DNA of 64,000 nucleotides from Anaerolineales bacterium (GTDB taxonomy: Bacteria > Chloroflexota > Anaerolineae > Anaerolineales > UBA4823), in contig JAOSJQ010000018.1 in the NCBI GenBank assembly GCA_027494035.1, positions 28,920 through 92,919 on the forward strand, in the 5' to 3' direction. Both the position numbers and the translations under genes were made by a program. How positions within the stretch are numbered: position 1 is the stretch's first letter; every line of letters begins with the position of its first letter. The notes under the pieces were generated by a model. It searched no databases. It was given only the letters and a program-made list of their open reading frames with translations, and was not told the origin of the DNA. Shown here in pieces: positions 4,385 to 32,203 of the stretch.

Positions 4385-7300
4385 CCTCGTTGCGTGAAGC
4401 TGAGTGGCAAATCTCCTACGGTCCCTCGGATGACCGGCTGAACAGCTTCTATATTCCCGCGCTGCAACGCTGTGTGAAATATGACCGCAGCACGGGCTTT
4501 TTCAGCAGTTCGTCGCTGGCCGTGGCGGGTGCTGGTGTAGCGGGTCTGGTCGCCAACGGCGGTACGATGCGTCTGCTGGCCGGAGCGCAGGCTCAGCCGT
4601 GAGGACGTGGAGGCTATCGCGCGTGGTGCATCACTGGAAGGGATTGTCACCGAGAAACTGCTGGCCGCGCTAGATCAGCCGGTCGAGGATTTGCTGCGCC
4701 GCCGGTTGGAAATCCTGGCATGGATGGTGGCACATGGCACCTTGCAGATCAAAGTTGTCCTGCCGCGCGATGCCAATGGCCTGCCTATCCCGGCGGAATT
4801 AGCCCAGGATTATTACCATCCAAAAGAGGGGCTATTCACCGATGCTGAGGGCAACCAGCTGGCCTTCAGCGGCAGCATCAACGAATCGATGACCGGCTGG
4901 CAGCGCAACTACGAGCAGTTCAGCGTCTATTTTTCATGGGATACCAGCCGCCCCTATCTGAGGCAGGTTGCGATTCGCTTCGACCGCGTTTGGGAGGGCC
5001 GTGAGCCGGATTGGATCGCCTTCGATATTCCCCAGGCCGCACGAGATGCGCTGTTGCGATTGGTCCCCGCCAGTGCGCCGGAACACGATCCGCTCGCTCC
5101 GGCAGTCATCAGCGTTGGTCCATCGCCTGATGTAGAAGCAAAACTCCGCCGCGAGCGCCTGATCTTCCAGTTCATCCGGGATATTCCCTACTTCCCCAAT
5201 GCGCAGCAGCTTGGCGCAGCGACGTGCGCGATCGCGCCCTGGCCGCACCAGATGCGCGTCGCGCAGAAAATCATCGACACCTATCCCAAGCGTTACATGC
5301 TGTGCGATGAGGTCGGATTGGGCAAAACCATCGAAGCGGGGTTGGTGCTGCGGCAGTTGGTTATTTCCGGTCGTGTGAAGCGCTGCCTGCTGCTCGTGCC
5401 TAAGTCTGTCGCGCGGCAGTGGCAGGAAGAACTCTACGAGAAATTCGTACTCGATGTGCCGTTGTACGAAGGCGGACGTTTTCGGAACTATGCGGGCGAA
5501 GAGCTAGGGTGGCCGAACGATACGGATAACCCCTGGGATGCGTTTGATATGTTCATCGCGTCCAGCCAGCTTGCCAAGCGCCGTGACCGGTACGAACAAG
5601 TCACCTCCGCGCGTCCCTGGGACCTGGTAATGGTGGACGAAGCACATCATGCTCGCCGCCGAGACTTCTTGCAGCCCATCTACCGCCCAAACCGTCTACT
5701 CGATCTACTGACCGCCCCGAACTTCCAAGCCAAAGCCATTCTCTTGATGACTGCGACGCCCATGCAGGTTCATCCGCTTGAGGTATGGGATTTGCTCAAA
5801 GTGCTGGGCCTGGGTGGCAAGTGGGGAGCGGATGAAGGCAACTTCCTGCACTTCTACCTGGAACTGATGAAGCCCTTCGAAGAGGTCGATTGGGATTTCG
5901 TCTTTGAGATGGTGAAAGACTATCTGGAATACGGCGGGCAAATCGATCCCGAATTTGCGGAACAGGCGCGCAATGCTTTGGGGTTTGTTGATTGGAACTC
6001 GTTGCAGCAGTTGCCACATGATCCCCATCCCTCGCGTGCCATGAGACCGCTGCCGGAAAACGTAAGACCTTTTGTGGTCGAGATGGCGCGTCGGCATACT
6101 CCCTTGCGTGATGTCATGTTTCGGAATACACGTGATCTTCTGCGGGAGTATGTGCGGCGCGGGCTGCTCAATGAGAAAGTTCCCACCCGCGATCCGCAAC
6201 TTATCTGGATACCCATGCGCTCTGAAGAGATGCAGCTCTATCTCCGCATCGAGGAGTACATCTCGGACTTCTACCGAAAGTACGAAAACGAACGTAAGGG
6301 TCTGGGTTTTGTGATGACCGTCTACCGTCGCCGCCTTACTAGCAGCTTCTATGCGGTCCTGCAAAGTTTGGAGCGGCGGCTGGAATTCCTGGAAGGACGA
6401 GCCGAGCAGGTATTTGACGACGACGATCTTGAGCAGGCCGATCTCGAACAAGATGTCACCGAAATTCTGGACGACGATCAACGGTCATTGTACCAGGAAG
6501 AAATCGACTACGTTGAGTCGTTCATCAGCGATCTTCAGCATCTCTCGATGCACGACTCAAAAACTGAGCAGCTTATCCAGGACCTCAGCACGATCTTCCG
6601 GCAGCGTGAAACCGCGATTGTCTTCACCCAATACACCGACACAATGGATTATCTGAGGGATAAACTCCTTCAGGTCTATGGCAGCCAGGTGGCCTGTTAT
6701 AGCGGTCGTGGTGGAGAAATCTGGAATGGGATCGCCTGGGTTGGCGTGACTAAGGAAGACATCAAACAAACTTTCCGAGTGGGGGAAGATGTCAAAATCC
6801 TGGTTTGTACTGAGGCCGCCAGTGAAGGTCTGAACCTGCAAACCTGTGGCGTGTTGATCAATTACGACATGCCCTGGAATCCGATGCGGGTTGAACAGCG
6901 AATTGGTCGTATCGACCGTATAGGCCAGGTGCACGATGAAGTCTGGATTCGGAACTACTTCTACGAAGAGACGGTTGAAGCACGTGTTTACCAGGCGCTC
7001 GCGCACCGCATCAACTGGTTTGAAGGGGTCGTGGGCGATCTTCAACCGATCCTGGCTCGTGTTGGGAGAGCCATCGAACGAGTGGTTATGGCTGCGCCCG
7101 ATGAACGCGAACAGGTGCTATCAGGAGAGCTTGACGAAATTGAACGCGGGCTGGATAAAAAAGATAGCGACATATTGAATGTCTACGAGGGCAGTGAGAG
7201 CGTTCATCCCTGGGCTGGACTGGCTGCTCCGATCACGCTTCCCGAACTTGAACGCTGCTTCTTGGAATCTGACCTCTTTGAGCGCCAGATCGTCCCGAAT

Positions 7301-8098
7301 CCAGGCATTGAAACGACCTATCTGGCAACGACATCTCAGGGACAAGTGGTGATCACGTTCAACCCCGAGACTTTTGATCGTTTCCCGAACTCGCTCCGAT
7401 TTCTCTCGTATGGCGACCAAGTTCTGGACGAACTGCTCAGCCGAGTGCCGCCCCCTGAACATGATGAGGACCGAGGAATCGTCTGTTTCTCCTCATCTGA
7501 TTCTGTTCCATTGAAAGCTTACTACGGGTTAAATCAGCAGAATCAACCAATCCGGCTTCAGACATTGCAGGACCTATTGCATGTCATTGGAGATGCCTCT
7601 GAAGACATGGCCTGGACCGACGCTGCTTTCCAGTGGGCCAAACAGGATTTTGAACAACATTTGGACAGCGCTCGCGAGGAATATGATTCCATTACCAGCC
7701 TGCGATTTCAAGCCACGCACTCAGCACTGGTGGAAAAGGCGGTCCGAATTGTGTATTGGGCCACTCTACTGGAATCGATCCAGAGCGGGCACTTTGGCAG
7801 TGTGGAGGATGCGTGGCGTGCTGTTACGACGAATGAACAGACGACCCAAAGTCTGTTGCGCCACGGTTATCCCTTTACGGCTCTATTGAGACTGACCGCG
7901 TCTAGAATAGGTGGCTCAAACATACCCCACCCTCTACCTAGTGATCTAGCCAACGCAAATCCCGAACAACTCCGACGGATGTTCCTTGGCCTGAAACAAG
8001 AGGGACAAATGCTACTGGAGCGGCTGGGTAGGACACAAGAGCAGCGGGAAATCCAGATACACATTCTGAACATCCAGGCCTCTTCTTTCAGAGTCTGA
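4381..8098 (+). pseudogene. PLD-nuclease/SNF2 helicase fusion with one +1 frameshift at about 4590-4591 (possibly a sequencing error)
   Basis: ORF 4381-4602 (YDRSTGFFSSSSL) joins ORF 4607-8098 if one G is removed from GCGCAGGCTCAGC, giving ...GAQLSREDVEAIARG. Motifs: PLD-like HPKEG...SGSINES, DEVGLGKT, DEAHH, SEGLNLQ, QRIGRIDRIGQ. Confidence 0.85.
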
Positions 8099-9619: not shown

Positions 9620-9835
9620 CTACTTCCGCTTTCCCCGCACAATCTGATGCACCCGCTGCTCTGAGATGCCGAACAGCCGCGCCAACTCCGGCACGCTCAT
9701 CCCCGCCGCATATCGGGCGCGAATCTCTACATTGCGTTCACGTTTGAGGCTTGACACGGGAGCCTGAGGAAGCGAAAAGCCACGATATAGCTGCTGCAAA
9801 ACGCGGCTCGTGGCTTGCTCAAGGGTGTATAAGGT
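9620..9835 (-). pseudogene. orphan C-terminal HTH tail of a second (element B) serine integrase
   Basis: Directly follows the left att core on the minus strand. RNVEIRARYAAGMSVPELARLFGISEQRVHQIVRGKRK is clearly homologous to the tail at 43638-43894. Confidence 0.7.
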
Positions 9836-11657
9836 TGTGCCCCATAGGGGCCTTTGGCTCAGAGGCTGCCTCAGTAGTAGGCGAAATCGCCTGCGTTTCA
9901 TCCGCTTGAACGCTCGTACCACCGTCCATTTGGTCACTCGTACCGCTGCCCATTCCACCGTCTCCTTGTTCGTCTTCGACCTCATACAGTGCCGCGCGCA
10001 GCACGACAAACTGATCTGCCCACGGCTTGAGCCGGAAGTCTACGATCCGCTGCGTGTCCAGGTCATACACGATTTCATCGAACAGGCTGCGCACTAAGCC
10101 CTGGCGGTCCTCATCTTCACCAACCTCCCAGAGACGCACCAGCTTATCCAGCGCTTCGGCGCACATTGCGAACTCTAACGCCAGCTTTTCGGTTTCGGTG
10201 GTACGTGCCTCCCAGTGAGCAATTTCGCGCTCATTTTGCTCAACCCGCCTGCGGTATTCTTCAGCGCTGATCACGCCATCACCAAAAAGAACAACTGCTG
10301 CCTCAATGCGCCGACGACACAGGGCAATTACTTCTTGCTTTTCCTGTTCTAAATCCTGGTCGTTTTCGTAGCGACCATTAGCCTTGTCCATCTGAATCGC
10401 CAACTCAGTCATGAGGTCGAGGGCCTCAGGACGAATGGTGAGCAGTCTTATCAGCCGCTCGAAATCTGCTTCCAGAACCTCGCAAAGAACTGACCGGTTT
10501 TGGCAACCACACTTGACGCCTGCTTTGTGCCGATAACGCATCTTCCCGTAAGTGTCGCTGCCGCCCAGAGCGCTGATCAGCCTGGGGTCTTTTTGTTCCG
10601 CTGCTCGCCGGACACAATGAGCACAATATGTGATCGCCGATAACGGGTAGAAGTGCGTTCTCCGGTTAACGCCCTCATCGGCGCGGCGAATGGTTCGCTC
10701 TTGCCGGGCGCGAGCCACCGAACGCAGCAGCTTGAGAGGGAAAACCGCCCGTTTTTCCTTGAAAGGAACTTCATCAACATTGTCAAAGCCGTCATAGGCG
10801 CGTCGGTCTTTGGCTTTCTTGTCCATGACGATTCCGCCATATTCCGGCCAGTTGGCGACCACACGGCGCACATCGTCTCGCGTAACCTCGCGTGGCTCTC
10901 CGGTACGATCACGATAAGCCCAGCCTTCCTCGTTCATTTTGTAAGCGATTTTTTCCAGGCCAAGATTACCGGTCGCATAGAGCTCGAGAGTGCGTTCCGC
11001 CGCTTCGAAAAAGCCTCGCCAGAGGGCCCCGTCTTCAGGCATTTCATCAGCAGTACCGGCGACAAATGTTCCATCTGCCAAGAGCCAGGCTCCCTCAGGG
11101 GTGGGTTGCAGATGGCCTTCGGCACCCCGAAGCGTCCCAAATGGAGGCATACCGATGCTGATACCTTTGGCCTTGCGGTAGGACACACTGTCTTTGGCTC
11201 TTTGAGAGATGTCTTCGGCGTAGTACTCGTCGATGATCGCGGTGAACTGGATAAACAGACGCCCCATCGCCGTCGAGGTGTCAACCTCACGCCCAGGGGC
11301 GGCTAGCACTAACGCTAACCCGCGCTTTTCCAGATAGTCCACCAGGTCTCCAACCCTCCACCCTTTGCGGTGAAGCCGCGAAAGATCATTGGCTACCAAG
11401 GCCACCACATCTGGATCAGCCAGACGGGCCTTCAGGGATAGCCATTCTGGTCGATTAGCTTCCTTGCGGGCTGATTTATGCCCGCCAACATCTTCATACC
11501 ATTCAGCAATCCAGCCTTTTCGCTCAATAAAGCCTTGGATGTTGGATCGCTGACGCTCCGGGCTGTTTCTGTCGTCATCATCGCGGGTGTAGGACTGGCG
11601 AACGTAACAAAGAGCAACCTTGCGCTCCGATGGTGTGAAAACCTTTTTACTGGACAT
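9819..11657 (-). CDS. large serine recombinase (integrase), C-terminally truncated at the att site in the integrated state
   Basis: Catalytic YVRQS and DLSRLHR, recombinase domain (PPFG), Zn ribbon (CAHC...CGC), coiled coil. The frame runs through the att core (PMGH) and stops 5 codons later. Confidence 0.95.
   Translation of the reverse strand: MSSKKVFTPSERKVALCYVRQSYTRDDDDRNSPERQRSNIQGFIERKGWIAEWYEDVGGHKSARKEANRPEWLSLKARLADPDVVALVANDLSRLHRKGWRVGDLVDYLEKRGLALVLAAPGREVDTSTAMGRLFIQFTAIIDEYYAEDISQRAKDSVSYRKAKGISIGMPPFGTLRGAEGHLQPTPEGAWLLADGTFVAGTADEMPEDGALWRGFFEAAERTLELYATGNLGLEKIAYKMNEEGWAYRDRTGEPREVTRDDVRRVVANWPEYGGIVMDKKAKDRRAYDGFDNVDEVPFKEKRAVFPLKLLRSVARARQERTIRRADEGVNRRTHFYPLSAITYCAHCVRRAAEQKDPRLISALGGSDTYGKMRYRHKAGVKCGCQNRSVLCEVLEADFERLIRLLTIRPEALDLMTELAIQMDKANGRYENDQDLEQEKQEVIALCRRRIEAAVVLFGDGVISAEEYRRRVEQNEREIAHWEARTTETEKLALEFAMCAEALDKLVRLWEVGEDEDRQGLVRSLFDEIVYDLDTQRIVDFRLKPWADQFVVLRAALYEVEDEQGDGGMGSGTSDQMDGGTSVQADETQAISPTTEAASEPKAPMGHNLIHP
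9836..9850. repeat. left att core, 15-bp direct repeat of the tRNA-Glu 3' end (TGTGCCCCATAGGGG)
   Basis: Exact match to 43895-43909; contains the quasi-palindrome CCCC-ATA-GGGG. Confidence 0.92.
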
Positions 11658-16161: not shown

Positions 16162-16980
16162 CTATCGCCCAAACACCCGCTTGAAGAAACCTGTCACCCG
16201 ATTAAGAAGCGAGGCTGGTTGCGGTGAAGGCTGAGGGGCCGGTTCCTTAGGGCCTGGTGCCAGGGTAGGAGGCGCATTGACCTCAGGCTTCCTTGACTCT
16301 ACTTCAGTTTCTCTCGCTGGATTTTCAGCTTGTATCCGCTCAACTGACGATGGCTTGGCGCGACTGGTAATGGCAGCTGAGATTATGCGTGGCAGAGAAC
16401 TCCAACGGTAACTTGGCAAGCGCTGGCCGGTTCGGACAGCCAGGATGTTTGACCACTCCCCAGGCTGGCAGCCGTTTCCCGCCCGAACCTTGAAGTAATA
16501 CGTCGTGAATTTTTGAAGATAACTGATGTCAACGGCGATCACACCATCGCTACTGTTCAGCAATTCGTAGCCGTGTTCCTCGGCGTTTTCGCTAGTGCTG
16601 TAGCTCACAAAGTAGCGGTCTCGGTTGCCAGAAACTGGCGCGAAATAGAGGGTCACGCTGTCAGGATGGGCGTTAATTTGGAACAAATCCGGAACGGATG
16701 ACGGTTTTTGCGCCGAGCAACCTCCCTGCGAGGATGAAGAGCCGGAGGATCTCGAAGTTGAGTCAGGTTTGTTTGAATCGCTACTGGGTTCAGGCGTTGG
16801 ACTGGAAGCTGGAACAGGAGATGGAGTTGCAGTTGCTACGGGCGTTGGACTTGGCGGCACCTCACCGACGTTATACGTGCCGACTCCGTAGCTCCCTTCG
16901 CCATAGGCCGTGGCCAACACCGATAAAGGCATAATCAAGGCTGCTAGCGAAAGAAGGAGTGACAAGACGAGTGGTTTCAT
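16162..16980 (-). CDS. secreted fibronectin type III domain protein with an N-terminal YGEGSYG motif and Pro/Ser linkers
   Basis: Sec-type signal MKPLVLSLLLSLAALIMPLSVLA; FN3-like TYYFKVRAGNGCQPGEWSN; amphipathic C-terminal tail LLNRVTGFFKRVFGR. Confidence 0.75.
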   Translation of the reverse strand: MKPLVLSLLLSLAALIMPLSVLATAYGEGSYGVGTYNVGEVPPSPTPVATATPSPVPASSPTPEPSSDSNKPDSTSRSSGSSSSQGGCSAQKPSSVPDLFQINAHPDSVTLYFAPVSGNRDRYFVSYSTSENAEEHGYELLNSSDGVIAVDISYLQKFTTYYFKVRAGNGCQPGEWSNILAVRTGQRLPSYRWSSLPRIISAAITSRAKPSSVERIQAENPARETEVESRKPEVNAPPTLAPGPKEPAPQPSPQPASLLNRVTGFFKRVFGR

Positions 16981-17051
16981 ATAGTAAGCGCTACTACTTG
17001 AAAAGCGCATGTGATACTATGCTACCAGAATTACTTTGAATATATAAATAT

Positions 17052-17225
17052 ATGTTTGGACTCGGTTTTCAAGAACTCCTCGTAATCCTCGCCATCGTGC
17101 TGGTACTTTTTGGCGGCAAGAAGCTTCCAGAGCTGTCTCGCAGTTTGGGCGAATCCTTGCGGGAAATCCGCAAAGGACTAGCTGGTGACGATGACCCAGC
17201 CAACAAAAAAGAGGATAAGAAGTAG
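17052..17225 (+). CDS. tatA: twin-arginine translocase subunit TatA (missing from the ORF track)
   Basis: Translated by hand: MFGLGFQELLVILAIVLVLFGGKKLPELSRSLGESLREIRKGL... Confidence 0.93.
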   Translation: MFGLGFQELLVILAIVLVLFGGKKLPELSRSLGESLREIRKGLAGDDDPANKKEDKK

Positions 17226-17239
17226 CTTTACCACGCCAC

Positions 17240-17977
17240 ATGACCGCCAAAGCGGGAGAACGCCAGTTATTCAGTGAGCACTTGCGAGAACTCAGGTCCC
17301 GTCTATTGTCCTGCGTGTTTTTTCTTGTGTGCGGCACAGCTGTTGGGTATTTTTGGTACGAGAATCTTCTCGATATCCTCGTTAAGCCCCTTGGTCAGCC
17401 TGTCTTTTACAGTTCACCAGCTGGTGGGTTTGACTTCATCCTTAAGCTGAGCTTGCTATTCGGCTTTGCGTTTTCCATTCCAGTGCTTGTTTACCACGCG
17501 TTCCGGTTCATCGAACCGGTTGTCCCTCAACGAGCACCAAAAAAGACCTTCTTGGTACTGGTGAGTTCCGGCGCACTCCTGATTATGGGCGTACTTTTCG
17601 CCTATTATGTTAGTCTCCCTGCGGCGCTGTATTTTCTGAGTTCGTTCACCACGGAAGGTGTGCACGCCCTCATATCCGCCAACGAATATTTCTCCTTTGT
17701 GACACGATATTTACTGGGATTTGGCCTGCTTTTTCAATTGCCTCTCGTACTGCTGGTGATCAATTCGGTGCAGCAAGTCCCCACAAAAACACTGCTAAGG
17801 CTTGAAAAGTGGGTGCTACTGTTGAGCTTTGTTATTGCCGCTGTTCTTACGCCCACCCCTGATGTGTTCAACCAGCTTCTGATGGCCGTGCCACTGATAA
17901 TCTTGTATCAGTTCAGTGTCGTTCTGGTGTGGCTCGTGAATACCAAAACCCCTCAGGCAAAAGGCAAAAAGCGTTGA
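17240..17977 (+). CDS. tatC: twin-arginine translocase subunit TatC
   Basis: FSEHLRELRSRL, about six TM helices, LGFGLLFQLP, AAVLTPTPD. Confidence 0.95.
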   Translation: MTAKAGERQLFSEHLRELRSRLLSCVFFLVCGTAVGYFWYENLLDILVKPLGQPVFYSSPAGGFDFILKLSLLFGFAFSIPVLVYHAFRFIEPVVPQRAPKKTFLVLVSSGALLIMGVLFAYYVSLPAALYFLSSFTTEGVHALISANEYFSFVTRYLLGFGLLFQLPLVLLVINSVQQVPTKTLLRLEKWVLLLSFVIAAVLTPTPDVFNQLLMAVPLIILYQFSVVLVWLVNTKTPQAKGKKR

Positions 17978-18015
17978 CGCGGATGTTATCTTTCTCTATA
18001 TTTGTTAGTATTAGT

Positions 18016-18207
18016 ATGCGCGCCAACTCTTTCAACCAATTACTCACCAAGGAACTCACTCGCCAGGAGTTTCTCCTGCACCTGGGGCTCTTGTTCCTTG
18101 CCGTCTCTGGCGTCTCCAGCTTTCTCCGAACACTTTCTGAACCCAATCTAGCAAACAAACAGCCCGCGTCCTCCCGACGATTTGGGGCAGGTCCCTATGG
18201 AGGCTAA
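18016..18207 (+). CDS. 63-aa micropeptide with a Tat-like signal (TRQEFL plus hydrophobic region) and C-terminal FGAGPYGG
   Basis: MRANSFNQLLTKELTRQEFLLHLGLLFLAVSGVSSFL...RRFGAGPYGG; lies between tatC and the next gene with a 2-nt gap. Confidence 0.7.
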   Translation: MRANSFNQLLTKELTRQEFLLHLGLLFLAVSGVSSFLRTLSEPNLANKQPASSRRFGAGPYGG

Positions 18208-18209
18208 CT

Positions 18210-18728
18210 ATGGCAAGGCTACCAACACCTAGTGGAGATGACGGTAACTGGGGCACCATCCTCAATGAGTTTCTGGAGGTAGAGCATAACGCTGATGGCA
18301 CGCATTTTGGTGCCAGCACTACCTCAAAGGGCGTCGTGGAGCTGGCTACTCAGGCAGAAGTTGACGCTGGGGCAGATGGGCAGCGGGTTGTAGTTCCCGC
18401 GACGCTCCAGGAAAAGCTCTACAGCACCCAAACTCTCGCTGATGGAGAGACCATCAACTGGGATACCTCGTTGGGAGCTTTTGCCCAAGTGACACTGGCA
18501 GGGAACAGAATCCTCGCCAACCCAGCCAATCTTATCAACGGAGCCTCATATATTTTGCTTATCAAGCAAGATGGTGAAGGTAGCCGAACCCTAACGTTTA
18601 GTGATGCGTACAAATTCCCTGATGGGACTGACCCCACCTTAAGTACCGCAGCCAATGCAGTAGACATTATTGCGTTCCTCAGTGACGGCACCAGTCTCTA
18701 TGGTTCCTTCCAAGGGAACTTTAGTTGA
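18210..18728 (+). CDS. phage tail-fibre-like adaptor protein without a signal peptide
   Basis: N-terminal ARLPTPSGDDGNWGTILNEFL; GVVELATQAE fibre-repeat-like motif; C-terminal module QDGEGSRTLTF...PTLSTAANAVDII...DGTSLYG. Confidence 0.65.
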   Translation: MARLPTPSGDDGNWGTILNEFLEVEHNADGTHFGASTTSKGVVELATQAEVDAGADGQRVVVPATLQEKLYSTQTLADGETINWDTSLGAFAQVTLAGNRILANPANLINGASYILLIKQDGEGSRTLTFSDAYKFPDGTDPTLSTAANAVDIIAFLSDGTSLYGSFQGNFS

Positions 18729-20008
18729 TTATGCCTATTCAGACACAGTTTCCAATGGGGTTCTTCAATACGCACCTTAGCAGTCAATGGAATGACGTCA
18801 CGCCACCAGACGGATGGACGTGGACACTTCCCTTCAACATTCAAAAAAATGGGAGAGTGTTCAGACCCGATCCCACGTGGGATATTTCAGCGCAAGTTCC
18901 TCGCGACGGCGGTCTACGTTACGTGTCAAAATCCGGCAACGATACAACAGGTGATGGGTTGACGTGGGAAACCGCGTGGAAAACAGTCACAAAGGCCTAC
19001 ACTGCTCTTGGTTCAACCCCCAATGTATGTATTTTTATCGGCGAAGGGATATGGGGCTGGAATGATGGTTGGTCCAATGCGACGCAAAGCGTAACGCGTT
19101 CCTTTGTGGGAGTTGGCAACGTTGAAATTGACACGTATTACATTGTGAACCCGTACTCACTCACCACAGGGAAGATGTACACCTACGAGTCCACTGGCCT
19201 GGTAGGGCCCATAAGCAGTGTACTTGATTACGGGCACAGAGACTCTGATGGAATCCCATCTTTGTATGCCACCAAAACAACAATTGATGACGTTGAGGCG
19301 ACTGCGGGATCGTTCTATTACGATACTGTCGCCAAAATCCTCTATGTCCACACTCTGAACGAATCGGCCCCCGATGCGAACGTTCGTTCGCAGTATATGG
19401 GCAGCAATTTTTTAAGTACTAATGTCTCAGGAGTTCAGCTATACGCTGAAAATTTCAAAGTTTATCGTACTCCAACGAGTATATCGTCTAGCGGTGGAAT
19501 CACGTATTTAAACAATGTCCACTTGGGATACATAGGTATGAGTTTCACGAACAATACAACGGCTATCCTGCGAGATTGTAGTTGGAGATCCTCCCTCAAG
19601 ATGGGTGTCGCTACGCAAGAAGACCTACTCTACGGAAGTGCAGCAAAGATCATCGAAATTGACTGTGAGGGATCGTATTCTGGCGGCTCCACCTATATTG
19701 GCAGTAATGCCACCACGAACCATGACGCGGGCGAAAACGTCATCATTAATGGAGAGTATCACCACACTTATGGTCCGCCCATTGGTTTCATCGGTAACGG
19801 AAAGTGCTGGCTACTTGGAACGTATTCTCACGATAACCTCGCTACTTCGGCCAATTACTACAGCTACCAACTTGACGAAGCCGTCGCCTACCTGGATTGT
19901 TGTAGGTCATCAGGCTCTGTCAAGGATATTGGCCCAATGAGCGAAATTGTCCATGTGCGCGACTTCATCGGCGGGGCCACGAGTGACGCATCACTTGTCG
20001 CATATTGA
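18725..20008 (+). CDS. predicted beta-helix / tailspike-like protein without a signal peptide
   Basis: YVSKSGNDTTGDGLTWETAWKTV motif typical of the start of pectin-lyase-like folds; Thr/Ser/Gly/Tyr/Asn-rich. Confidence 0.6.
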   Translation: MIMPIQTQFPMGFFNTHLSSQWNDVTPPDGWTWTLPFNIQKNGRVFRPDPTWDISAQVPRDGGLRYVSKSGNDTTGDGLTWETAWKTVTKAYTALGSTPNVCIFIGEGIWGWNDGWSNATQSVTRSFVGVGNVEIDTYYIVNPYSLTTGKMYTYESTGLVGPISSVLDYGHRDSDGIPSLYATKTTIDDVEATAGSFYYDTVAKILYVHTLNESAPDANVRSQYMGSNFLSTNVSGVQLYAENFKVYRTPTSISSSGGITYLNNVHLGYIGMSFTNNTTAILRDCSWRSSLKMGVATQEDLLYGSAAKIIEIDCEGSYSGGSTYIGSNATTNHDAGENVIINGEYHHTYGPPIGFIGNGKCWLLGTYSHDNLATSANYYSYQLDEAVAYLDCCRSSGSVKDIGPMSEIVHVRDFIGGATSDASLVAY

Positions 20009-20190: not shown

Positions 20191-20715
20191 GTGCGCAAGG
20201 AATGGAAACCACTTCCAGCGCCCATCACTTTCGAGCAAGTGTCTCACTTCGCTCAAGAAGCCCTATTGCAAAGCGGTCATCACGCGCCAACCCTGATCAT
20301 TGACGGCAGCGCCCGACCTGTCGTGGTGCAAATCGACGGGCTGGCTCCCACTTTCGAGGGCCGAGTTCAACAGATGTTTGTGGCCGGACAGGCTCTCGCT
20401 CGCGATGGCAATGCCGGGCAACTGCGCAGCGTCTACTTTGTGACTGAAGCTTGGCTTAGTCAGGCTCAGGAAGGGAAATTGCCCGACGTTCCGCCTTCCC
20501 AAGACCCCCAGCGCAAAGAAGTGCTCATTGTCGATGGGGTAGAGGCCAAATCGCATCGAGCGAGAGTGGCGATTTACGAAATGCTGCGCGACGAACAAGG
20601 AAATCTACGCGAAATCCGCGAGCTCAGACTTCCCGATGATTCGTCTACCTCTTCTGATAGCCCGCTGCTGGAGGCATTCCTCACCGGTTTTTGGGCGAGA
20701 GATGGATTGCGGTGA
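20191..20715 (+). CDS. hypothetical protein
   Basis: 174-aa ORF. Confidence 0.6.
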   Translation: MRKEWKPLPAPITFEQVSHFAQEALLQSGHHAPTLIIDGSARPVVVQIDGLAPTFEGRVQQMFVAGQALARDGNAGQLRSVYFVTEAWLSQAQEGKLPDVPPSQDPQRKEVLIVDGVEAKSHRARVAIYEMLRDEQGNLREIRELRLPDDSSTSSDSPLLEAFLTGFWARDGLR

Positions 20716-21009: not shown

Positions 21010-22407
21010 TCAATCAGAATTTCTGATGTTTACGTAGAAGCGATTGCTTCGCCCCACACACACACCATTCTGGACGATGAAGCATTCAATCCAGTGTTTT
21101 CCGGTGTACTGGGTGATCTCCCAATTTACCAGAGGGTTATTTGGATCGGTCTGCCTATTTCGACCTCTACCCTGAAAGAAGTCTCCACGCAGTCCGCCCT
21201 CGTTTTTGGCGTGTTCACCTGTGTTGACAACTTGCCAGTGAACTTCGTACTCACCTCGGCAACCAGTAGAGGCAACAAACTTAATTTCCAGCCCACCTTG
21301 GAGAATCCGCCCATTCGAGTTGAGTCCACTGGGATTGCCCACACCTGGATGCACGTAAGCATTAAGCCTGACCTTTGCCTTCTGCTGCAATTTGACAGGC
21401 CATGGGGGTATTCTTGCGTGTGAAATGCTGCTCAGGGTTATAGCGGATGCGGCCTTGCGTGTTTCCTCGGCTTCCTCTGAGTCATATAACGGGAACTTGT
21501 CACCGAAGATTTGTCTCCATAACTCTGAGCTCTGGAGATCATCAGTTTCATCACGTGCCACTATGGCAAGGGCAAGGCTTTCGTTCACGCAATCGAGAAA
21601 GACTTGAAATTCTTCCGGACTCATGCTGGTCTTGATGATTTCGCCGGGCAGTCCTGGGTCGGCAAGGGAAGGTACAGTGGTTGCACTGAAATACTTGAGC
21701 GATATATTGGTCAGAACAGCAACAAAATGGTCGGCCCATTCCTTTCGCGTCGGGTCAAAATTCTCACCGGTCAGGCACTCCACCCAAAATCCTTTGGGCT
21801 TAGGTCGTTCAACGTCCGGCTGCTTAACCTCACATTGGTATTTCCACCACCACTTCATCATTTTCACAAGCGGAACATACCGGCCTTGACTGCATTCTTC
21901 CGAATTAAGTGTGGTAGTGTGCTTGAGGTGACCTCTGGGGTGGCTGGGAATCCATACTTTTAAATCCCTGTCAGGGACCAAAAGAGGCTCATCCGCTGTT
22001 GTCTGTACCACTGCCGGAATGATGTCCAGTGTCAACTCAACACCATCACGATCTGGTAGAGGCTCATCCACTCGAATCGACCGCCGTTGGTAGGCCGTTT
22101 CAGGGTTTTCGTAGCACTCGCCTAAGGCCGCCTTGAACCGTCTCAATACCTTCTGGGGGTTGTTGTCGGGATCGGTGGTATCCAAGTCGGTGAGAATAAC
22201 AATATCCACATCCTTGATATCACCGACCGCCGTATGGCGTCTGTAGGAACCATAGAGAAACGAACCGGTAATTACCTCGGCCAGCTTGCAATCGGTTTGA
22301 AGACAGCCTCGCACATAAGTATGTGCTTCGACGGCATGGTTGACAGCCTTCGTTTCAGGCTCAAGGTTGCTAAGGAAGGCATCGAACAGACTGTTTAGTT
22401 TACCCAT
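21010..22407 (-). CDS. CBASS CD-NTase (SMODS nucleotidyltransferase) with a C-terminal AGS-C domain
   Basis: GSYRRHTAVGDIKDVDIV catalytic motif; C-terminal WQVVNTG...LRGDF...YTGKHWIECFIVQNGVCVGRS. Confidence 0.9.
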   Translation of the reverse strand: MGKLNSLFDAFLSNLEPETKAVNHAVEAHTYVRGCLQTDCKLAEVITGSFLYGSYRRHTAVGDIKDVDIVILTDLDTTDPDNNPQKVLRRFKAALGECYENPETAYQRRSIRVDEPLPDRDGVELTLDIIPAVVQTTADEPLLVPDRDLKVWIPSHPRGHLKHTTTLNSEECSQGRYVPLVKMMKWWWKYQCEVKQPDVERPKPKGFWVECLTGENFDPTRKEWADHFVAVLTNISLKYFSATTVPSLADPGLPGEIIKTSMSPEEFQVFLDCVNESLALAIVARDETDDLQSSELWRQIFGDKFPLYDSEEAEETRKAASAITLSSISHARIPPWPVKLQQKAKVRLNAYVHPGVGNPSGLNSNGRILQGGLEIKFVASTGCRGEYEVHWQVVNTGEHAKNEGGLRGDFFQGRGRNRQTDPNNPLVNWEITQYTGKHWIECFIVQNGVCVGRSNRFYVNIRNSD

Positions 22408-22413
22408 CGTGCC

Positions 22414-23712
22414 TCACATTGTATTGGTCAGCGTTCCGGCCAACCGATATTCGGTTCTGGTTTCATCCAGGTAGTACAGAGAGAGCGGACAAATAGCGTT
22501 GAGGTGGTATCCAATCAAACAAGCGAGAGCGGCAGGCATTGCCCCAAATACATGAATATGGGTTGCTCCCCACCGGTCACAAAGATTCTTTGTCTTGCGC
22601 GCAATCTCCTGAGAAATAGACAGGGCGTGAGCAGCATTGACGACCCGCCCATCAGGGAGAGAAAAACCCAGCACGGCCTGTGGGGGAGAGGGCCAACTGG
22701 AGACAAAGTCTCTTACGGAAGAAGTTATGTTTCGCGGGGAGAGATTCAGCACCACCGCCACTTCACTACTCTGGCTATTTAGAAACACTGGCAGATCGTC
22801 GAATATGCCGGTTGTTTTGGCAGGTAACCCCGTCGTCGCCCAAACTCCATTCCTGGCGATTATGCGGAGATTGAAGCGCGTGACTCCTCGAAAAACCCAA
22901 CCAACCAGAAAGGCCAGAGATAGCCTGGTTTGCAGGTGTATAGTGAGTTCCTTCGAGAAATCCGGAGGTTGAATCACGGCTCGTAATGCGCTCAGTGTTT
23001 GATGAGCCTTTACAAATTGTCCTGGAGACTCTTCTTCACTCACCACGAATTGGTGCAATGACACCTGTACGTCTGCTTGTCCCCGAAAGCTAACGTCGGA
23101 AAAACTGGAAATGCCAATGTTCAACGAGTAGGGTTCAACTCTCACAATCCCGCCGAGAGTCTGATCGATGTGCCTTCTTAGGTCTTCGCCCGATACTGGC
23201 CATTCGATGGTCTCTTTTGAAACACCGTTGAGTCCAGGGAAGACAAGGCTCTCGAAGTTATCAGACGGAAAGTGCTTGGTGAAATGTTTGTACAAAAGAT
23301 CAGGATAGTCTGAGAGTTGATCCATCAGCTTTTCCCAAAACACGATTTCAACGGGGAAGCGGTTCTGTGCTATCCGCTCCTCGCTCACCGCCAACACGTG
23401 ACTCTGAGTTTCCCCATCTGTGGCGGCACTTGTGACAATAATCATCTTGTTGAGGGCAGGGGCAAACCCTTCTGCTCGGCCAATCTCATCATCAACTTCT
23501 TTGTTTGAAATTTCGTCGGTCGTGCGGTGTTTACATTGAATGCCGAGCAGACCGTTTTGTGTTTGACCCACGACATCCACTCCATGCTGGCGCTGACCTC
23601 GACGCGCATATCTTTGGAAGTTATCGCTTTGATAAGTCCGAGAATAAACATCACAGACAATGTCTTCAAATGTTTCCCAATCTCTAGGTTTAGGGAATAT
23701 GAATTGTGCCAT
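22414..23712 (-). CDS. CBASS effector: restriction-endonuclease-like domain plus SAVED sensor
   Basis: N-terminal FEDIV...QHGVDVVG...IQCK; C-terminal HIHVFGAMPAALACLIGYHLN; 6 nt from the CD-NTase gene. Confidence 0.85.
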   Translation of the reverse strand: MAQFIFPKPRDWETFEDIVCDVYSRTYQSDNFQRYARRGQRQHGVDVVGQTQNGLLGIQCKHRTTDEISNKEVDDEIGRAEGFAPALNKMIIVTSAATDGETQSHVLAVSEERIAQNRFPVEIVFWEKLMDQLSDYPDLLYKHFTKHFPSDNFESLVFPGLNGVSKETIEWPVSGEDLRRHIDQTLGGIVRVEPYSLNIGISSFSDVSFRGQADVQVSLHQFVVSEEESPGQFVKAHQTLSALRAVIQPPDFSKELTIHLQTRLSLAFLVGWVFRGVTRFNLRIIARNGVWATTGLPAKTTGIFDDLPVFLNSQSSEVAVVLNLSPRNITSSVRDFVSSWPSPPQAVLGFSLPDGRVVNAAHALSISQEIARKTKNLCDRWGATHIHVFGAMPAALACLIGYHLNAICPLSLYYLDETRTEYRLAGTLTNTM

Positions 23713-23896: not shown

Positions 23897-24484
23897 TTAC
23901 AGATTCAACCTCTTCACTACCTCCTCGAGCTCATCATCCGTAATCCCCAAATACCGCTTGGTGTACGCCAAACTGGCATGGTTGAGCTTGTACATAATGA
24001 GTGCGAGATCGACACCGTTCATGCGAGCATGATACCCCCAGGTTTTGCGCAAACTATGTGTTCCGAAGTTGCCGCGCAGACCGATGTCTTGGCATATTCC
24101 GGTGATGAACTTCCAGGCTTGCCCGCGTTTAATTGGCTCACGAAAATTGTTCGCCTTGGAGTTGAAGAAGACATGATTATCGGGATCGCTGGTGACACCA
24201 GGATAGGCAGACAAATATTCGTTGAGTGCTTCTCTAATACTGTCGTTGATCACAATCTCCTGGCGCTTACCTCGCTTCTCCTCTTTAATCACAGACCGGC
24301 GGCGGATATGGTTGTGTTCGTCCATAAAGTGGCTAACACGCAATTGGAGCAAGTCCGAAATGCGCAACGCCGTGTTGATCCCCACCACAAACAGCAGCAG
24401 GTCGCGGTAGCGTCCTTCGCCGCGCAACTGGTTTTTGATTTGCGCAATGCGTTTGCGGTCGCGAATGGGTTCAACAAAGTTCAT
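23897..24484 (-). CDS. short tyrosine recombinase (catalytic domain only)
   Basis: NTALRISDLL, HSLRKTWGYH, LNHAS...TKRYLG (R-H-R-H-Y). Confidence 0.92.
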   Translation of the reverse strand: MNFVEPIRDRKRIAQIKNQLRGEGRYRDLLLFVVGINTALRISDLLQLRVSHFMDEHNHIRRRSVIKEEKRGKRQEIVINDSIREALNEYLSAYPGVTSDPDNHVFFNSKANNFREPIKRGQAWKFITGICQDIGLRGNFGTHSLRKTWGYHARMNGVDLALIMYKLNHASLAYTKRYLGITDDELEEVVKRLNL

Positions 24485-26318: not shown

Positions 26319-27203
26319 TCAACCTTGTCTGGGAACCAATGCTTCAGTTTTCAGTGCGCCTGCCACTATCCAGACAGGCTCAGTGAGAACCCCTTCCTGA
26401 GTAATCTGTTCACTCGTCGTGAACCAAAACACCCGCCCGCCTCCGACTTGCTCCGCCTCTTCCCGCAGGTTCTCCAACCGCTTCGGTCCAGACGTGACAG
26501 TCAGCACACGCAAACTGCGCGTCCCATATCGGCGCTCGTACTGTCCGCTGGCAATGTACGCCTGGTAAGCCAGAACTTTGTCGCGAAAACGGGCCCGCGT
26601 CATCGTTCCCCGGTCGAGTTCCAAAAAGAAACACGCTCGGCCTTGGGGAACTTGCAACACACAGTAGCCATCCGGGATCAGTGATACGGTGCGTTTCCGT
26701 CCTTGCGGTGTCTGAATGACCACCCGGTCATAATCGGCCTTAAGCTGGTAATCATCGAGCCACATCTCCAGCGTGTATCCCTGCTCTCGCGCGGCCACCA
26801 TCACCGCCACGCGAAAGTCATTGATTTGCAGCAAGTGCTCCAGAAACAGCGGGCTCAACTCCTGGTTGTTGGGCGGCTTTCGGATATCCTTCGGGCCACA
26901 ATCCAGCACTCGTCGTAGTACGTCCACACCTCGCTTGCCTAGCACATAGAGCGCTGGACTGCTAGCCAGTCCTCCCAGTGTAGGCAGAAAATGCCGGTCC
27001 AAAAAGCCGTGTTGGTACAGCCGCGACAATCGGTACGAAGCCGTACTCTGCGAGCCGAAATACAGCGCTTGCAGTTGGTCTCCGCGCATTATTCGGAAGT
27101 CATGTACCGCCTTCAGGATTTCGATGTCTCGCTCCATCAGGCGCATGGGCGGGGGTTCGTCCGCTCGCCGGTTGCGTGGTAATCGCCCCATGGGTTGTCT
27201 CAA
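26319..27203 (-). CDS. replication-relaxation (Replic_Relax) family protein
   Basis: LMERDIEIL, HLLQINDFRV, LIPDGY, FLELDRGT, LRVLTVT. Confidence 0.85.
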   Translation of the reverse strand: MRQPMGRLPRNRRADEPPPMRLMERDIEILKAVHDFRIMRGDQLQALYFGSQSTASYRLSRLYQHGFLDRHFLPTLGGLASSPALYVLGKRGVDVLRRVLDCGPKDIRKPPNNQELSPLFLEHLLQINDFRVAVMVAAREQGYTLEMWLDDYQLKADYDRVVIQTPQGRKRTVSLIPDGYCVLQVPQGRACFFLELDRGTMTRARFRDKVLAYQAYIASGQYERRYGTRSLRVLTVTSGPKRLENLREEAEQVGGGRVFWFTTSEQITQEGVLTEPVWIVAGALKTEALVPRQG

Positions 27204-29893
27204 TCGAAATCGGAAACCGTGCCCTTTGGGCGCTGACGCAAGCGCTTTTCATAGCGCTCTTCCATCCACGCCTCGACCTCCTGCCGAGTCCAGGGCGTAT
27301 ACTGCAAAATCGACGATTCCCGGATACGCGCTTCGCGCTCGTCGGCGTCAGGCGGCTCCTCGGGTGGTGGCAGGGTTTGGATAGTAAACGCAGGCACCGT
27401 CTTGCCGTTTACCTGCATCTTCACCGCCGCCTGGAAGCGGTCAAAGTTCATCAGGTTTTCGGGCGTGAGGTTGGGCTTCAAATATCCAGATAGCGCCTTG
27501 GCATCATCAGGGCCACAGGCAAACATAATCGCCGCGCCCGCGTTGCCCAGGATCGACTCTAGCGTGCTGCCTTTGAGCTGGCCCAAGTACTGGTTAGCTG
27601 CCGTCAGGCTTAGCCCGAACTTACGCGCCTCGGAGAACACCACCGGCAAAGCCGTCGTCACAAACTGCTGGACCTCCTCAACAAACAAGTAGAATGGCTT
27701 AACTTCCTCATTCTCACTGGCTCGCCTGGTCATGGCCGCCATCTGGAAGTCGGTTATGAGCATCGCGCCCAAATTGGCTTGCTCACTGCGCGTCTCGTCG
27801 CTGTTGAGGTTGGCCAAGAATATCTTGCCGTCATTGAGAATACTCTTGAAGTCCAGGCGGTGCGGGTGACACACCATGTTTCGCACCGCACTGTTGCGGT
27901 AGAAAATGCGGATACGATTCAGTACCGGCTCACGGACCTGGGCTTGCATTGCCTCGCTAAGCCGGTCGTATTCGTCAAACCAAAACTCCAACGCCACCGG
28001 GTCTTTGACCTGTTGGAGTAACTCGGTCCGGTACTCGGCGTCCATCATGATGCGCGAGATGTCGCGCGGAGTAGCGTTCTGCTCATACATGAGCGCTACC
28101 AAGGCGCTGTAGAGCACGTTCTCCATCCGAGTGCGGCTCCAGTCCTCGGCGTAGATCTTCTTGAGCACGCCCATCACCTGGCTTACTGCCGCGTCACGCG
28201 GCACACCCTCCGGCACGGCAAAGGGATTCAGCGGAGCAGGATAATCGGTCTGGGCGAAGTCAATGAGCACCACGTCATCTTCGCGCTCAGGGGGAATGCT
28301 GCTGCGCAGAATTGACCGTACTAGACTACCGTGAGGATCAATCACCCCCACCCCTTCTCCGGCAAGAATGTCCTGGGTGATGATGTGATGCAGCGTGGTG
28401 GATTTGCCCACACCGGTCTTGCCAACCATGTATACATGCTGGGCTCGGTCAGTATCCGCTAGGACAATGGGTGTACGTTGGCCTGAGTGGATGTTCTCGC
28501 CAATCACCACCCCCACATGATCGTGAACAGCAGCAGTTGGCGCGGCTACATTTCCTTCGGCGGCCCACATGATTTCCTTCGCCTGAAAGCCTTTGTGTGG
28601 TGGGTGCCAAAGGCTGGCGATTTCCTCAGGAGTGAGAATCAGACGGGTTCGTTTCCACCTTTCCCCGGCTCCGGTCGCCCATTGGTAGATCAAAGAAAGG
28701 CTGCTGTAGCGCTGCTCTTGACCATCATTGGTGATCGAGCGGATTGAGTCTGGCCAGGGCTCTTCATCCCACACCAGCGCATTGTACGGATCGCGCACAA
28801 ACTGCCAGATCTGGCTATCCACGGTAGCCAACTCCTGCACTCGCGTCCGGACTGGGCTGTCAATCATTACCGACAAAAAACACTGGTACAGCGGACGGCT
28901 GAGCTTCTGCTCGGCCACAGCTTGGTCGCTGGGCCGATATTTCTCGACACGCTCCTGGCGGAGACCTGCGGCATCTGCAATCAGATTCAGGCCGGTGGTT
29001 GATACAAATTGCAGGGGATTCACCGGGCTGGATGTAATCATCTTCTCCCCTAGCGGGTGCGCATACTCGGCGGGAACCGACAACACAACGCTATAGGTGA
29101 TACGCTCCCCTGGCTGAAGATTAGACATGGCTTGAGTAACCGCAGCCAGCGGATCGAAGCTTTTTAGATCATCCACAGACTTGATAGGCCAGATAAAATC
29201 TGCCCCTTGCCGGAAAAACAGCACGTAACGATAAAACGGAAATTCTCTCTTCTCACCTTCGTCGGCTCCCCATTCCACTTCGGCGTTGGGATAGTACGTG
29301 TTGATCGCCCTCAAGATGTGGTCTGGGTGCAGATCGCTGCGCCAGTCGGTAATCTCCCACCAGATGCGATTGGGCTCGGCCACAATCCGCAATGCCAGAT
29401 GAATGGTGGTGCGCAGTAGGTATTCAGCAAAACGCCGGGCGGTCTCGGTTTCGAAATTCTCGCCTTTGGGCAAGACAATTCGATAGCGACGCGGCTCGGC
29501 CAGAGGTTTTTGGGAAATGATAGCTTCGTTATTGGAGTTGTCGGTGTCTTCGGTAGATTCAGTAAATTTCTGCAAGAGCAGTATTCCAAAGATCGCCCCG
29601 ATACCGGCGAATACATAGCTTGAGTTGCCTGGTAGTGTTAGATAAGTCAGCACGAAAGACACGGCAAGTCCTATCGCGAAGAAAGCCTTCCTTTGCTGGT
29701 TATTGCCCACAAATCCACCGAGTGATCGGTTCTCAAACGGACCTTCCAGCGAATCAGGAAGTTTGGGAGCAGTATATTTCTGCCAGGCGAAGATGCCCAA
29801 GGCTGCCAATATCCCGGCAAACAAACCGATGATGCCCCAGACCATGCTGTTGAGTGTTTCGACGACGGGATCGTCTTCACTTTGATAAGGCAT
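27200..29893 (-). CDS. type IV coupling protein-like (VirD4/TraD/HerA-type) ATPase with N-terminal TM helices
   Basis: RBS AAGGAG; Walker A GKTGVGKST, IDPHG, VEEVQQF, SEARKFGLSLTAANQYLGQL. Confidence 0.85.
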   Translation of the reverse strand: MPYQSEDDPVVETLNSMVWGIIGLFAGILAALGIFAWQKYTAPKLPDSLEGPFENRSLGGFVGNNQQRKAFFAIGLAVSFVLTYLTLPGNSSYVFAGIGAIFGILLLQKFTESTEDTDNSNNEAIISQKPLAEPRRYRIVLPKGENFETETARRFAEYLLRTTIHLALRIVAEPNRIWWEITDWRSDLHPDHILRAINTYYPNAEVEWGADEGEKREFPFYRYVLFFRQGADFIWPIKSVDDLKSFDPLAAVTQAMSNLQPGERITYSVVLSVPAEYAHPLGEKMITSSPVNPLQFVSTTGLNLIADAAGLRQERVEKYRPSDQAVAEQKLSRPLYQCFLSVMIDSPVRTRVQELATVDSQIWQFVRDPYNALVWDEEPWPDSIRSITNDGQEQRYSSLSLIYQWATGAGERWKRTRLILTPEEIASLWHPPHKGFQAKEIMWAAEGNVAAPTAAVHDHVGVVIGENIHSGQRTPIVLADTDRAQHVYMVGKTGVGKSTTLHHIITQDILAGEGVGVIDPHGSLVRSILRSSIPPEREDDVVLIDFAQTDYPAPLNPFAVPEGVPRDAAVSQVMGVLKKIYAEDWSRTRMENVLYSALVALMYEQNATPRDISRIMMDAEYRTELLQQVKDPVALEFWFDEYDRLSEAMQAQVREPVLNRIRIFYRNSAVRNMVCHPHRLDFKSILNDGKIFLANLNSDETRSEQANLGAMLITDFQMAAMTRRASENEEVKPFYLFVEEVQQFVTTALPVVFSEARKFGLSLTAANQYLGQLKGSTLESILGNAGAAIMFACGPDDAKALSGYLKPNLTPENLMNFDRFQAAVKMQVNGKTVPAFTIQTLPPPEEPPDADEREARIRESSILQYTPWTRQEVEAWMEERYEKRLRQRPKGTVSDFD

Positions 29894-31099: not shown

Positions 31100-31166
31100 T
31101 TGTTGCAGTGTACTGGATGCCGAAAGGCTTTTCTACCCCACCCAACGCTCATCACCACACCTGGTA

Positions 31167-32194: not shown

Positions 32195-32203
32195 GCACCG
32201 GAT

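Follow-up and report, generated by a model that had tools for sequence, protein, structure and literature searches.

Within the 64,000-nucleotide stretch of Anaerolineales bacterium DNA analysed here (the window), six genes between positions 16162 and 20008 encode a twin-arginine translocation (Tat) pair, a 63-residue micropeptide, two phage-like proteins devoid of signal peptides and a divergently transcribed FN3 protein. We put at about an even chance that these six genes make up a single phage-derived, horizontally mobile module for surface display, in which folded cargo would be exported piggyback through Tat, on a signal provided in trans by the micropeptide. Piggyback Tat export with surface display was the best reading of what was computed, namely a conserved gene unit, coupling of the peptide to its cargo gene, co-occurrence across genomes, motif pairing, specialisation of TatC and protein folds.

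A recurring gene order

All of the genes that a first-pass annotation of this DNA had described, namely a plus-strand set for TatA, TatC and proteins of 63, 172 and 427 amino acids together with a divergent FN3 gene, were present upon open reading frame listing and family scans. The FN3 gene (16162-17010, minus strand), whose product is referred to here as the stalk, is separated by a short, AT-rich intergenic sequence (17011-17051), presumably a promoter region shared by both genes, from tatA (17052-17225, plus strand, 57 amino acids), the sole TatA-family gene in the cassette. Then follow on the plus strand tatC (17240-17977, 245 amino acids), the micropeptide gene (18016-18207, with an ATG start and its stop codon at 18205-18207), the gene of a 172-residue protein starting with MARLPTPSGDDGNWGTILNEFL (the adaptor; 18210-18728) and that of a beta-helix enzyme, which runs to position 20008 from either a TTG codon at 18725 (427 amino acids) or an ATG codon at 18731 (425 amino acids). 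Neither the adaptor nor the enzyme has a hydrophobic N-terminus, in agreement with their earlier description as signal-less proteins. The peptide stop codon and the adaptor gene lie 2 nt apart, in different frames. A scan of the region for consensus promoters and terminators yielded nothing exceeding chance. One promoter-like site (TTGACG-17-TATATT, 17974-18002, plus strand) was noted in the 38 nt that separate tatC from the peptide gene; the count of such sites in the region was not above chance.

A survey of gene neighbourhoods, proposed in the annotation as the first check on this cassette, was run on species genomes, viral contigs and metagenomes and returned 160 further loci. The order recurred strongly: a stalk gene facing tatA, tatC, a peptide gene, the gene of a protein beginning with MARLPTPGGDDGNWG (the ARLP module, which heads the adaptor in the window) and a variable enzyme gene, encoding a beta-helix protein, a pectinesterase-like protein or a GDSL esterase. 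It was present in loci L003-L008 and in many genome and metagenome loci, the bearers including Aggregatilinea, Caldilineaceae, Thermomicrobiales and many Patescibacteria, with Saccharimonadia, Woese-, Levy- and Moranii-bacteria represented. The peptide was found in all six loci obtained by exact protein look-up, in 24 of 58 genome loci and in 28 of 80 metagenome loci, and in none of the 22 viral loci. The ARLP gene starts -20 to +150 nt from the peptide stop codon in 51 of 59 loci, such that a signal-bearing and a signal-less partner are co-encoded in these 51 as they are in known Tat hitchhiker pairs; the spacing is typically -8 to +18 nt, which suggests translational coupling. Since all three relative frames occur (frames 0, 1 and 2 in 19, 9 and 23 loci, respectively), neither recoding nor a hidden fusion is involved, and a frameshift or read-through fusion of the peptide with the 172-residue protein was ruled out, the best 150 members of the peptide family also being no longer than 99 amino acids. 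Among 146 homologues of the 172-residue protein, all of those inspected start with MAxLPT and none of these is N-terminally extended.

The co-occurrence of the cassette components extends to whole genomes. In a set of 201 evenly drawn Patescibacteria, TatC was detected in 11 genomes and the ARLP module in eight, all eight of which also had TatC (Fisher p 2.9e-12). A clear match to the peptide profile was found in seven of these eight, and a divergent peptide was recognised by eye beside tatC in the eighth (G090). Fourteen cassette-bearing small genomes (by size or title, Patescibacteria metagenome-assembled genomes) were checked; they encode exactly one TatC each and, judging from the best matches to the Tat signal model TIGR01409, essentially no such signal other than the peptide itself. 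TatC was not listed in the gene tables of Southlakia epibionticum. Among 41 relatives of the genome from which the window derives, the peptide and the ARLP module were found at this locus only. In this genome, the cassette is a sign that a whole unit for export and display has moved between phyla on a conjugative island.

These results bear on whether the adjacency of the genes has any meaning at all. The phage-like character of the cargo proteins and the location of the locus on a mobile island are what one would expect of a prophage tail remnant stranded beside an ordinary extra Tat pair; this explanation is already contradicted by the recurrence of the gene order across phyla in dozens of loci, and neither the phyletic coupling just described nor the distinctness of the TatC clade (see below) accommodates it. 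Nor are there other phage structural genes nearby, the neighbours being tatAC and genes for a DUF2958 protein, a cyclic oligonucleotide-based antiphage signalling system (CBASS), an integrase and relaxase-type proteins in place of a virion structural module. We regard meaningless adjacency as extremely improbable.

The micropeptide and its TatC

The peptide is laid out as MRANSFNQLLTKELTRQEFL, a transmembrane helix with a conserved glycine, a linker of about 20 residues and a terminal FGAGPYGG immediately before the stop codon, just as had been noted earlier (T-R-Q-E-F-L, a hydrophobic helix and an FGAGPYGG end). A word-indexed homologue search with this peptide gave four matches only and was replaced by locus mining and a full HMMER scan of the peptide profile against 1.84 billion representatives, from which 1,465 cluster representatives were retrieved at E <=1e-3, 493 of them at E <=1e-10. 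The best 150 of the 1,465 are all stand-alone proteins of 48-99 amino acids. Among these 150, the motif (F/Y)GxGxYG is found in 141, with a single residue between it and the C-terminus in 71; the first arginine of the signal and the phenylalanine are invariant, and the arginine pair reads RK in 98, RR in 40 and RQ in three, with other residues in nine. Invariant positions in our alignment of the peptides (A2) are R16, F19, G32, Y61 and G62. The NCBIfam model NF038009 matches the window peptide at 44.2 bits (E 1.7e-11, positions 4-66 of 70), below its curated cut-off of 100, and covers the window peptide and all 10 further homologues end to end (E 1e-10 to 1e-18, 41-66 bits). By these scores the window peptide is best regarded as a homologous relative of NF038009 and not as a member as curated, and the model, on which Saccharibacteria-type peptides score best, seems to have been built on a narrow set.

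That the peptide might not be translated had been named as a result that would overturn the proposal. Compared to its nearest metagenomic copy, the reading frame displays a dN of 0.084 and a dS of 0.62 (dN/dS ~0.13), and this signature of purifying selection argues for a frame that is translated and under constraint. The ribosome-binding site (GGAGG) of the 172-residue protein gene overlaps with the end of the peptide frame (codons tat gga ggc). The motif as a by-product of that site was ruled out, given that it is kept where the ribosome-binding site sits elsewhere and in nearly all of the best representatives. A hydrophobic region typical of signals is present, with an AlphaFold2 (AF2) helix over residues 12-37, and no AxA site is conserved after the helix in alignment A2. 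Because no cleavage site is conserved whereas the helix glycines are, the peptide looks more like a retained, permanent signal-anchor than like a cleaved carrier; of the earlier suggestion of a detachable carrier or membrane tether, the tether is thus favoured.

The TatA-family protein scores 60.5 bits against PF02416 and 60.2 against TIGR01411 (cut-off 53.9), and 37.1 against the TatB model TIGR01410, which has a cut-off of 56.5; no separate tatB was found in the cassette by open reading frame listing or family scans. TatC scores 180.5 bits against PF00902 (cut-off 25.1) and 158.9 against TIGR00945 (cut-off 132.7). In a maximum-likelihood tree, all peptide-linked TatCs, including that of the window, form one clade (93/96 support) apart from the housekeeping TatCs of Chloroflexota, and the window sequence nests within it among Woese-, Levy- and Moranii-bacterial sequences, which points to transfer between phyla. 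Besides the tatC of the window, the genome has a housekeeping copy that lies next to nusB on the main contig; at least 11 ordinary Tat signals were found on that contig and none on the contig of the window. The Tat pair of the window is thus an extra, private copy on a mobile element, as had been surmised.

To compare signal-binding sites, the TatC set was aligned to Aquifex TatC (4B4A) and surveyed column by column, with about 40 members of the peptide-linked clade included. The signal-binding residues of E. coli TatC are H12, E15, F94, Y100 and E103 (PMC13323110). In the 2026 structure of E. coli TatBC with a substrate, the first arginine of the signal contacts E15, the second pairs with E103 in a salt bridge and packs against Y100, and the phenylalanine enters a pocket (PMC13323110). 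The window TatC keeps the equivalents of H12 and E15 (SEHLRELRSRL) and has replaced those of Y100 and E103 (EPVVPQRAPKK); throughout the clade, the H12 and E15 equivalents are retained and the Y100 and E103 equivalents are lost in every member. The peptide, for its part, keeps the first arginine and the phenylalanine and is relaxed at the second arginine, so that the contact is gone on both sides. Such a two-sided loss is as expected if the peptide were the cognate ligand of this TatC clade. Together with the separate clade, the altered binding site supports, at the level of sequence comparison, the earlier notion of a private Tat system that would be substrate-specific. A second clade of TatCs from the candidate phyla radiation (loci L060, L064, L111, L157 and L184, the latter from genome G090) was also observed, in which short divergent peptides of the form xR(K/R)xFL-helix-YGNxAYGG lie beside tatC with ARLP genes nearby; within it, the TatC that keeps a glutamate of the E103 type, that of L184, is also the one with an R-R peptide.

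The same data may be read in terms of a fixed accessory subunit: the micropeptide would be part of a specialised Tat receptor, either as a stand-in for TatB or as a permanently bound signal, and TatC with its peptide would recognise the ARLP module directly. The cassette's want of a tatB gene agrees with such a role, as does the NCBI name of the family, which records association only ("twin-arginine translocation system-associated protein", with the model label TatB_1), and so do the conserved helix glycines G24 and G32, unusual for the hydrophobic region of a generic signal, the constant occurrence of the peptide as a separate small protein in the best 150 representatives, and the changes in the TatC binding site in step with the peptide. 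Its topology, however, with R-x-x-F-L at the N-terminus before the helix, is that of a signal peptide and the opposite of that of TatA and TatB. The peptide gene is, moreover, coupled to the cargo gene and not to tatC, and in two genomes (G134 and G164) it sits with the cargo, apart from tatC; its terminal YG motif resembles phage docking tails. A fixed subunit therefore strikes us as unlikely next to a signal-anchor carrying cargo in trans.

Putative docking motif, cargo and proposed export route

Proteins of 130-1,400 amino acids begin with the ARLP module (MARLPTPGGDxGxWGxxLNxFLxVxHNxDGTLK). The longer ones carry collagen repeats, CBM5/12, BppL_N, pectate-lyase-like beta-helices and GDSL esterases, a content typical of trimeric phage receptor-binding proteins. 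In the adaptor of the window, the module (residues 1-33) is followed by one tail-collar-type repeat (GVVELATQAEVDAG) and a C-terminal beta-sandwich (precomputed match to PF26209, Phage_phiTE_241_C), and the protein matches PHROG tail families, including tail fibres, with E values down to 3.3e-9. For structure prediction, AF2 was run on a single chain from Aggregatilinea in which peptide and adaptor are naturally fused by read-through, with an alignment (A7) including 13 read-through bridging rows. Predicted local distance difference test (pLDDT) scores were 84-94 in the peptide helix and ~95 in the C-terminal beta-sandwich. A Foldseek search with the adaptor model retrieved the Pa223 phage capsid spike (E 2.5e-4), tailspikes, baseplate proteins and the N-terminal adaptor part of CBA120 TSP4 (residues 1-335, E 8e-3). 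Judging from this model, the 172-residue protein looks like a branching phage adaptor and less like the fibre proper that its earlier labelling implied.

The second cargo protein, of 427 residues, was modelled by AF2 as a right-handed, parallel beta-helix (pLDDT 89.7, predicted template modelling score 0.88) with its N-terminal 16-20 residues disordered. Twenty-one PDB entries were matched by Foldseek at E <=1e-3, including glycoside hydrolases, polysaccharide lyases, capsule depolymerases of Klebsiella phages and tailspikes, and PHROG matches were to a hydrolase (E 1.6e-17) and a tail fibre (E 4.8e-13). It is accordingly a predicted polysaccharide-active beta-helix depolymerase, its slot being filled in other loci by a GDSL esterase or a pectinesterase-like protein. 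Searches of the PDB by sequence with the 172- and 427-residue proteins returned no match.

The strongest indirect support for binding of the motif to the ARLP module comes from viral contigs that have no Tat genes. There, the YG motif was found either at the extreme C-terminus of the open reading frame just upstream of the ARLP gene (L088, L089, L091, L095, L097 and L098) or N-terminally in the frame that directly follows it (L081, L084, L085, L087, L092 and L094). Under strict scoring, a terminal motif was present in genes flanking ARLP fibre genes at 8 of 17 viral loci. The background among 503 open reading frames of at least 100 amino acids amounted to five C-terminal and eight N-terminal cases, four of which in each class are the ARLP neighbours themselves. 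One of the upstream neighbours bearing the motif is a phrog_376 tail protein (E 1.9e-141). By its sequence context, (F/Y)GxGxYG looks like a phage tail docking code, and the micropeptide thus occupies the place, and bears the terminal tail, of a phage tail protein that precedes an ARLP fibre. The gene pairing in these Tat-free contigs lends independent support to the earlier proposal that the aromatic-glycine motif is the partner of the ARLP domain.

Two further observations were made on phage sequences. Directly upstream of the ARLP gene in viral contig L088 lies a sequence (5737-6001) in which single stop codons part three successive in-frame segments with abundant YGxGxYG repeats; the gene may have decayed, or the phage may use a genetic code in which this stop codon is reassigned. 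Among cultured phages, the module was found in six records only, all of them Streptomyces phages of ~113-116 kb. In one (L185, Streptomyces phage Alone3, 13511-14908), the ARLP gene gp41 is located inside a tRNA array, beside a peptidase gene and a TerD-family gene and outside the tail module, and its position among tRNA genes was set aside as uninformative.

The same motif recurs on the stalk protein, which is composed of a signal peptide ending in ...LSVLATA, the sequence YGEGSYGVGTY at the beginning of the mature chain, a Pro/Ser/Thr-rich linker, an FN3-like domain and a C-terminal amphipathic helix (SLLNRVTGFFKRVFGR); its true start is likely the second methionine (MKPLVLS...). The match to Pfam fn3 is borderline (24.9 bits, E 2.3e-5, just under the cut-off of 25), and precomputed matches to fn3 and CarboxypepD_reg were found in stalk homologues. 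The (F/Y)GxGxYG likeness between the peptide end and the mature N-terminus of the FN3 protein, which had been pointed out before, was present and extends well beyond the window: in 22 of 22 distinct stalk homologues, YGxGxYG(xGxY) lies no further than about two residues from the predicted start of the mature chain, directly after a signal-like stretch. The C-terminus of the homologues is either a transmembrane helix with a basic tail or an amphipathic helix as in the window. With this arrangement, the motif would be presented at the far end of a stalk rooted in the membrane.

From the above we infer a route that involves binding of motif to module, co-export, a defined topology and a hand-over. 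The adaptor would fold in the cytoplasm, probably as a trimer, and take on the beta-helix enzyme, and the terminal FGAGPYGG of the peptide would plug into the ARLP module, as a mimic of the tail found at the end of a baseplate or tail protein in phages. R-x-x-F-L and the helix would dock in the specialised TatC, and TatA would pass the folded complex, which amounts to hitchhiking with the signal in trans. Left uncleaved, the peptide would tether the complex to the outside of the membrane. From there, the complex could possibly be handed over to the FN3 stalk, a Sec-exported protein that has the identical motif at its N-terminal, distal tip. The products are likely to serve as glycan-recognising and glycan-cutting fibres of the cell surface, which in epibiotic Patescibacteria would mediate attachment to host cells and, on an element resembling an integrative and conjugative element (ICE), would mediate contact with partner cells or penetration of sheaths and extracellular polymeric substances.

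Several observations weigh against this route. The window peptide carries R-Q and not R-R and has no TIGR01409 match (two RR-bearing homologues do pass this model, at 23.2 and 20.1 bits vs 16.7). The basic C-terminal tails of some peptides disfavour, by the positive-inside rule, a location outside the membrane; in those peptides, the ribosome-binding site of the following gene falls at the same place as the tails. A glutamate is likewise absent from the E103 column of our own alignment in this genome's housekeeping TatC, so that its loss is not unique to the peptide-linked clade. Of 55 peptide-positive loci, a stalk protein was found in only 31, and such proteins are rare near the cassettes of Saccharimonadia. 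Finally, in the AF2 model of the fusion, a monomer with an 8-residue linker standing for what is probably a trimeric fibre, pLDDT was below 50 in the motif and linker and 55-65 in the ARLP module, and no docking was seen, although a monomer of a probably trimeric fibre says nothing either way about docking.

Taken at face value, the latter result suits a scheme in which the peptide is the only true Tat substrate and serves as a membrane peg displaying the YG plug outside, as the stalk would, the fibre and enzyme leaving by lysis of some of the cells, in vesicles or through another exporter before docking on the pegs of sister cells. The presence of the motif at the exposed termini of both peptide and stalk, and the fact that phage fibres with this module are normally freed by lysis, speak in the same sense. 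Yet, the tight spacing of peptide and cargo genes suits assembly at synthesis, the cassette includes no lysis genes, a single-span peptide of 60 residues would hardly warrant a dedicated TatAC, and, in the Patescibacteria genomes sampled, ARLP proteins never occur without TatC. We consider such a peg improbable and retain co-export of the folded complex on the peptide as the preferred reading.

A broader proposal, which we put forward tentatively and hold to be rather less probable than not, is that the plug (F/Y)GxGxYG and the socket MARLPTPGGDDGNWG make up a docking code that is portable and common to phages and cells. One TatC clade would have been rebuilt around a trans signal-anchor of 60 residues, allowing socketed phage receptor-binding proteins to be exported folded and mounted on the surface. 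This would be the main task of Tat in Tat-bearing Patescibacteria, where it would build an exchangeable organelle for host attachment and wall cutting, and would supply a partner-recognition device to conjugative elements in filamentous Chloroflexota. If export on the peptide is real, this would be the first Tat system with its targeting signal supplied wholly in trans by a micropeptide, and in the matching change of the arginine site of TatC, nature would have carried out an experiment on how signals are recognised. The system would also explain what Tat does in Patescibacteria, which have almost no ordinary Tat substrates, and show how epibionts of this group may acquire and swap host-binding proteins from phages. 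The plug and socket would, in addition, offer a compact code usable for displaying folded proteins on cell surfaces.

Known systems and the mobile island

Tat hitchhiking in combination with a dedicated TatAC is already known in principle. In HybO-HybC, DmsA-DmsB and PaoABC of E. coli and in MelC1-MelC2 of Streptomyces, a signal-less folded partner crosses the membrane bound to a co-encoded signal carrier, as would be the case here, and MelC1 is a dedicated Tat carrier. For PaoABC, ternary hitchhiking has been described (PMC4273604), and melC1 is termed a helper gene in PMC2758597. In contrast to these, the carrier in the present cassette is a protein of ~60 residues made of a signal and a 7-residue plug, with no folded domain and probably uncleaved. 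The cargo is a phage-type fibre/depolymerase complex and not a cofactor enzyme, the translocase is private and altered, and co-export is predicted. The phoD-tatAd-tatCd locus of B. subtilis is a dedicated TatAC next to its cargo and additional to a second Tat system. Like it, the cassette combines a TatA-TatC pair without TatB with a presumed cargo, in addition to another Tat system; unlike PhoD, which has its own cleavable RR signal, the signal is here on a separate micropeptide in which, judging from the family alignment, the second arginine appears dispensable. Uncleaved Tat signal-anchors and tail-anchored Tat substrates are represented by Rieske Fe-S proteins and HybO. A Tat-type signal would similarly remain as membrane anchor in the cassette, where the anchor is a separate gene product and not part of the exported protein itself. 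On the phage side, depolymerases are borne by a small adaptor, itself anchored to the particle through an N-terminal module, in the CBA120 TSP4/TSP2 and G7C gp66-gp63.1 branched complexes and in siphophage tail-tip fibres, much as is proposed here. Those complexes are anchored to the virion baseplate whereas the anchor here would be a membrane peptide and a cell-surface stalk, and the fold matches are modest (E 2.5e-4 to 1e-2). Literature searched for the NF038009 name, for TatC or Tat in Saccharibacteria and Patescibacteria and for Saccharibacteria tail fibres returned nothing on this system; a 60-residue trans signal, a TatC rebuilt around it and a phage plug-and-socket code for cell-surface display were not found in it, the association being recorded by the NCBIfam label only.

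The cassette resides in a region of lower G+C content (~50%, 0.49-0.55, over window positions ~6000-44000 vs 57-70% in the flanks), a drop that fits a foreign island. By its gene content, this is an ICE-like island: a serine recombinase, a helix-turn-helix regulator and a DUF2958 protein, the cassette and a CBASS pair are accompanied by a tyrosine integrase, two Replic_Relax proteins, a TrwB/DUF87 ATPase, a primase and a type I restriction-modification system. The backbone was delineated by family scans (9819-11657, 23897-24484, 26319-35078 and 36780-43422) and comprises a 612-residue serine recombinase, a small tyrosine integrase of 195 residues, the two Replic_Relax proteins, a TrwB/DUF87 coupling ATPase of 897 residues, an AAA_22 protein, an archaeo-eukaryotic primase plus CHC2 primase and the restriction-modification system, which is complete. 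No VirB4-type gene was seen among these backbone genes, which suggests a minimal or FtsK-like mode of transfer. Backbone genes are common only to Chloroflexota loci L003 (Aggregatilinea lenta), L007 and L008, so that the cassette is a separable module and the backbone was ruled out as a part of the cassette unit.

Immediately downstream of the cassette, a gene for a 174-residue protein without family match (20191-20715, plus strand) occupies the same relative position in L003, L007 and L008 and belongs to the element backbone or to the periphery of the cassette. The CBASS-type defence pair directly downstream of the cassette (21010-23712, minus strand) consists of a SMODS nucleotidyltransferase with an AGS_C sensor (465 amino acids) and a SAVED-Mrr endonuclease fusion (432 amino acids). 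At the edge of the island (19-8098, plus strand), a DUF7680 protein, a DUF1156 and DNA-methylase protein of 977 residues and a SNF2/ResIII helicase of 1,163 residues are encoded in a cluster that looks like another defence or restriction-like system.

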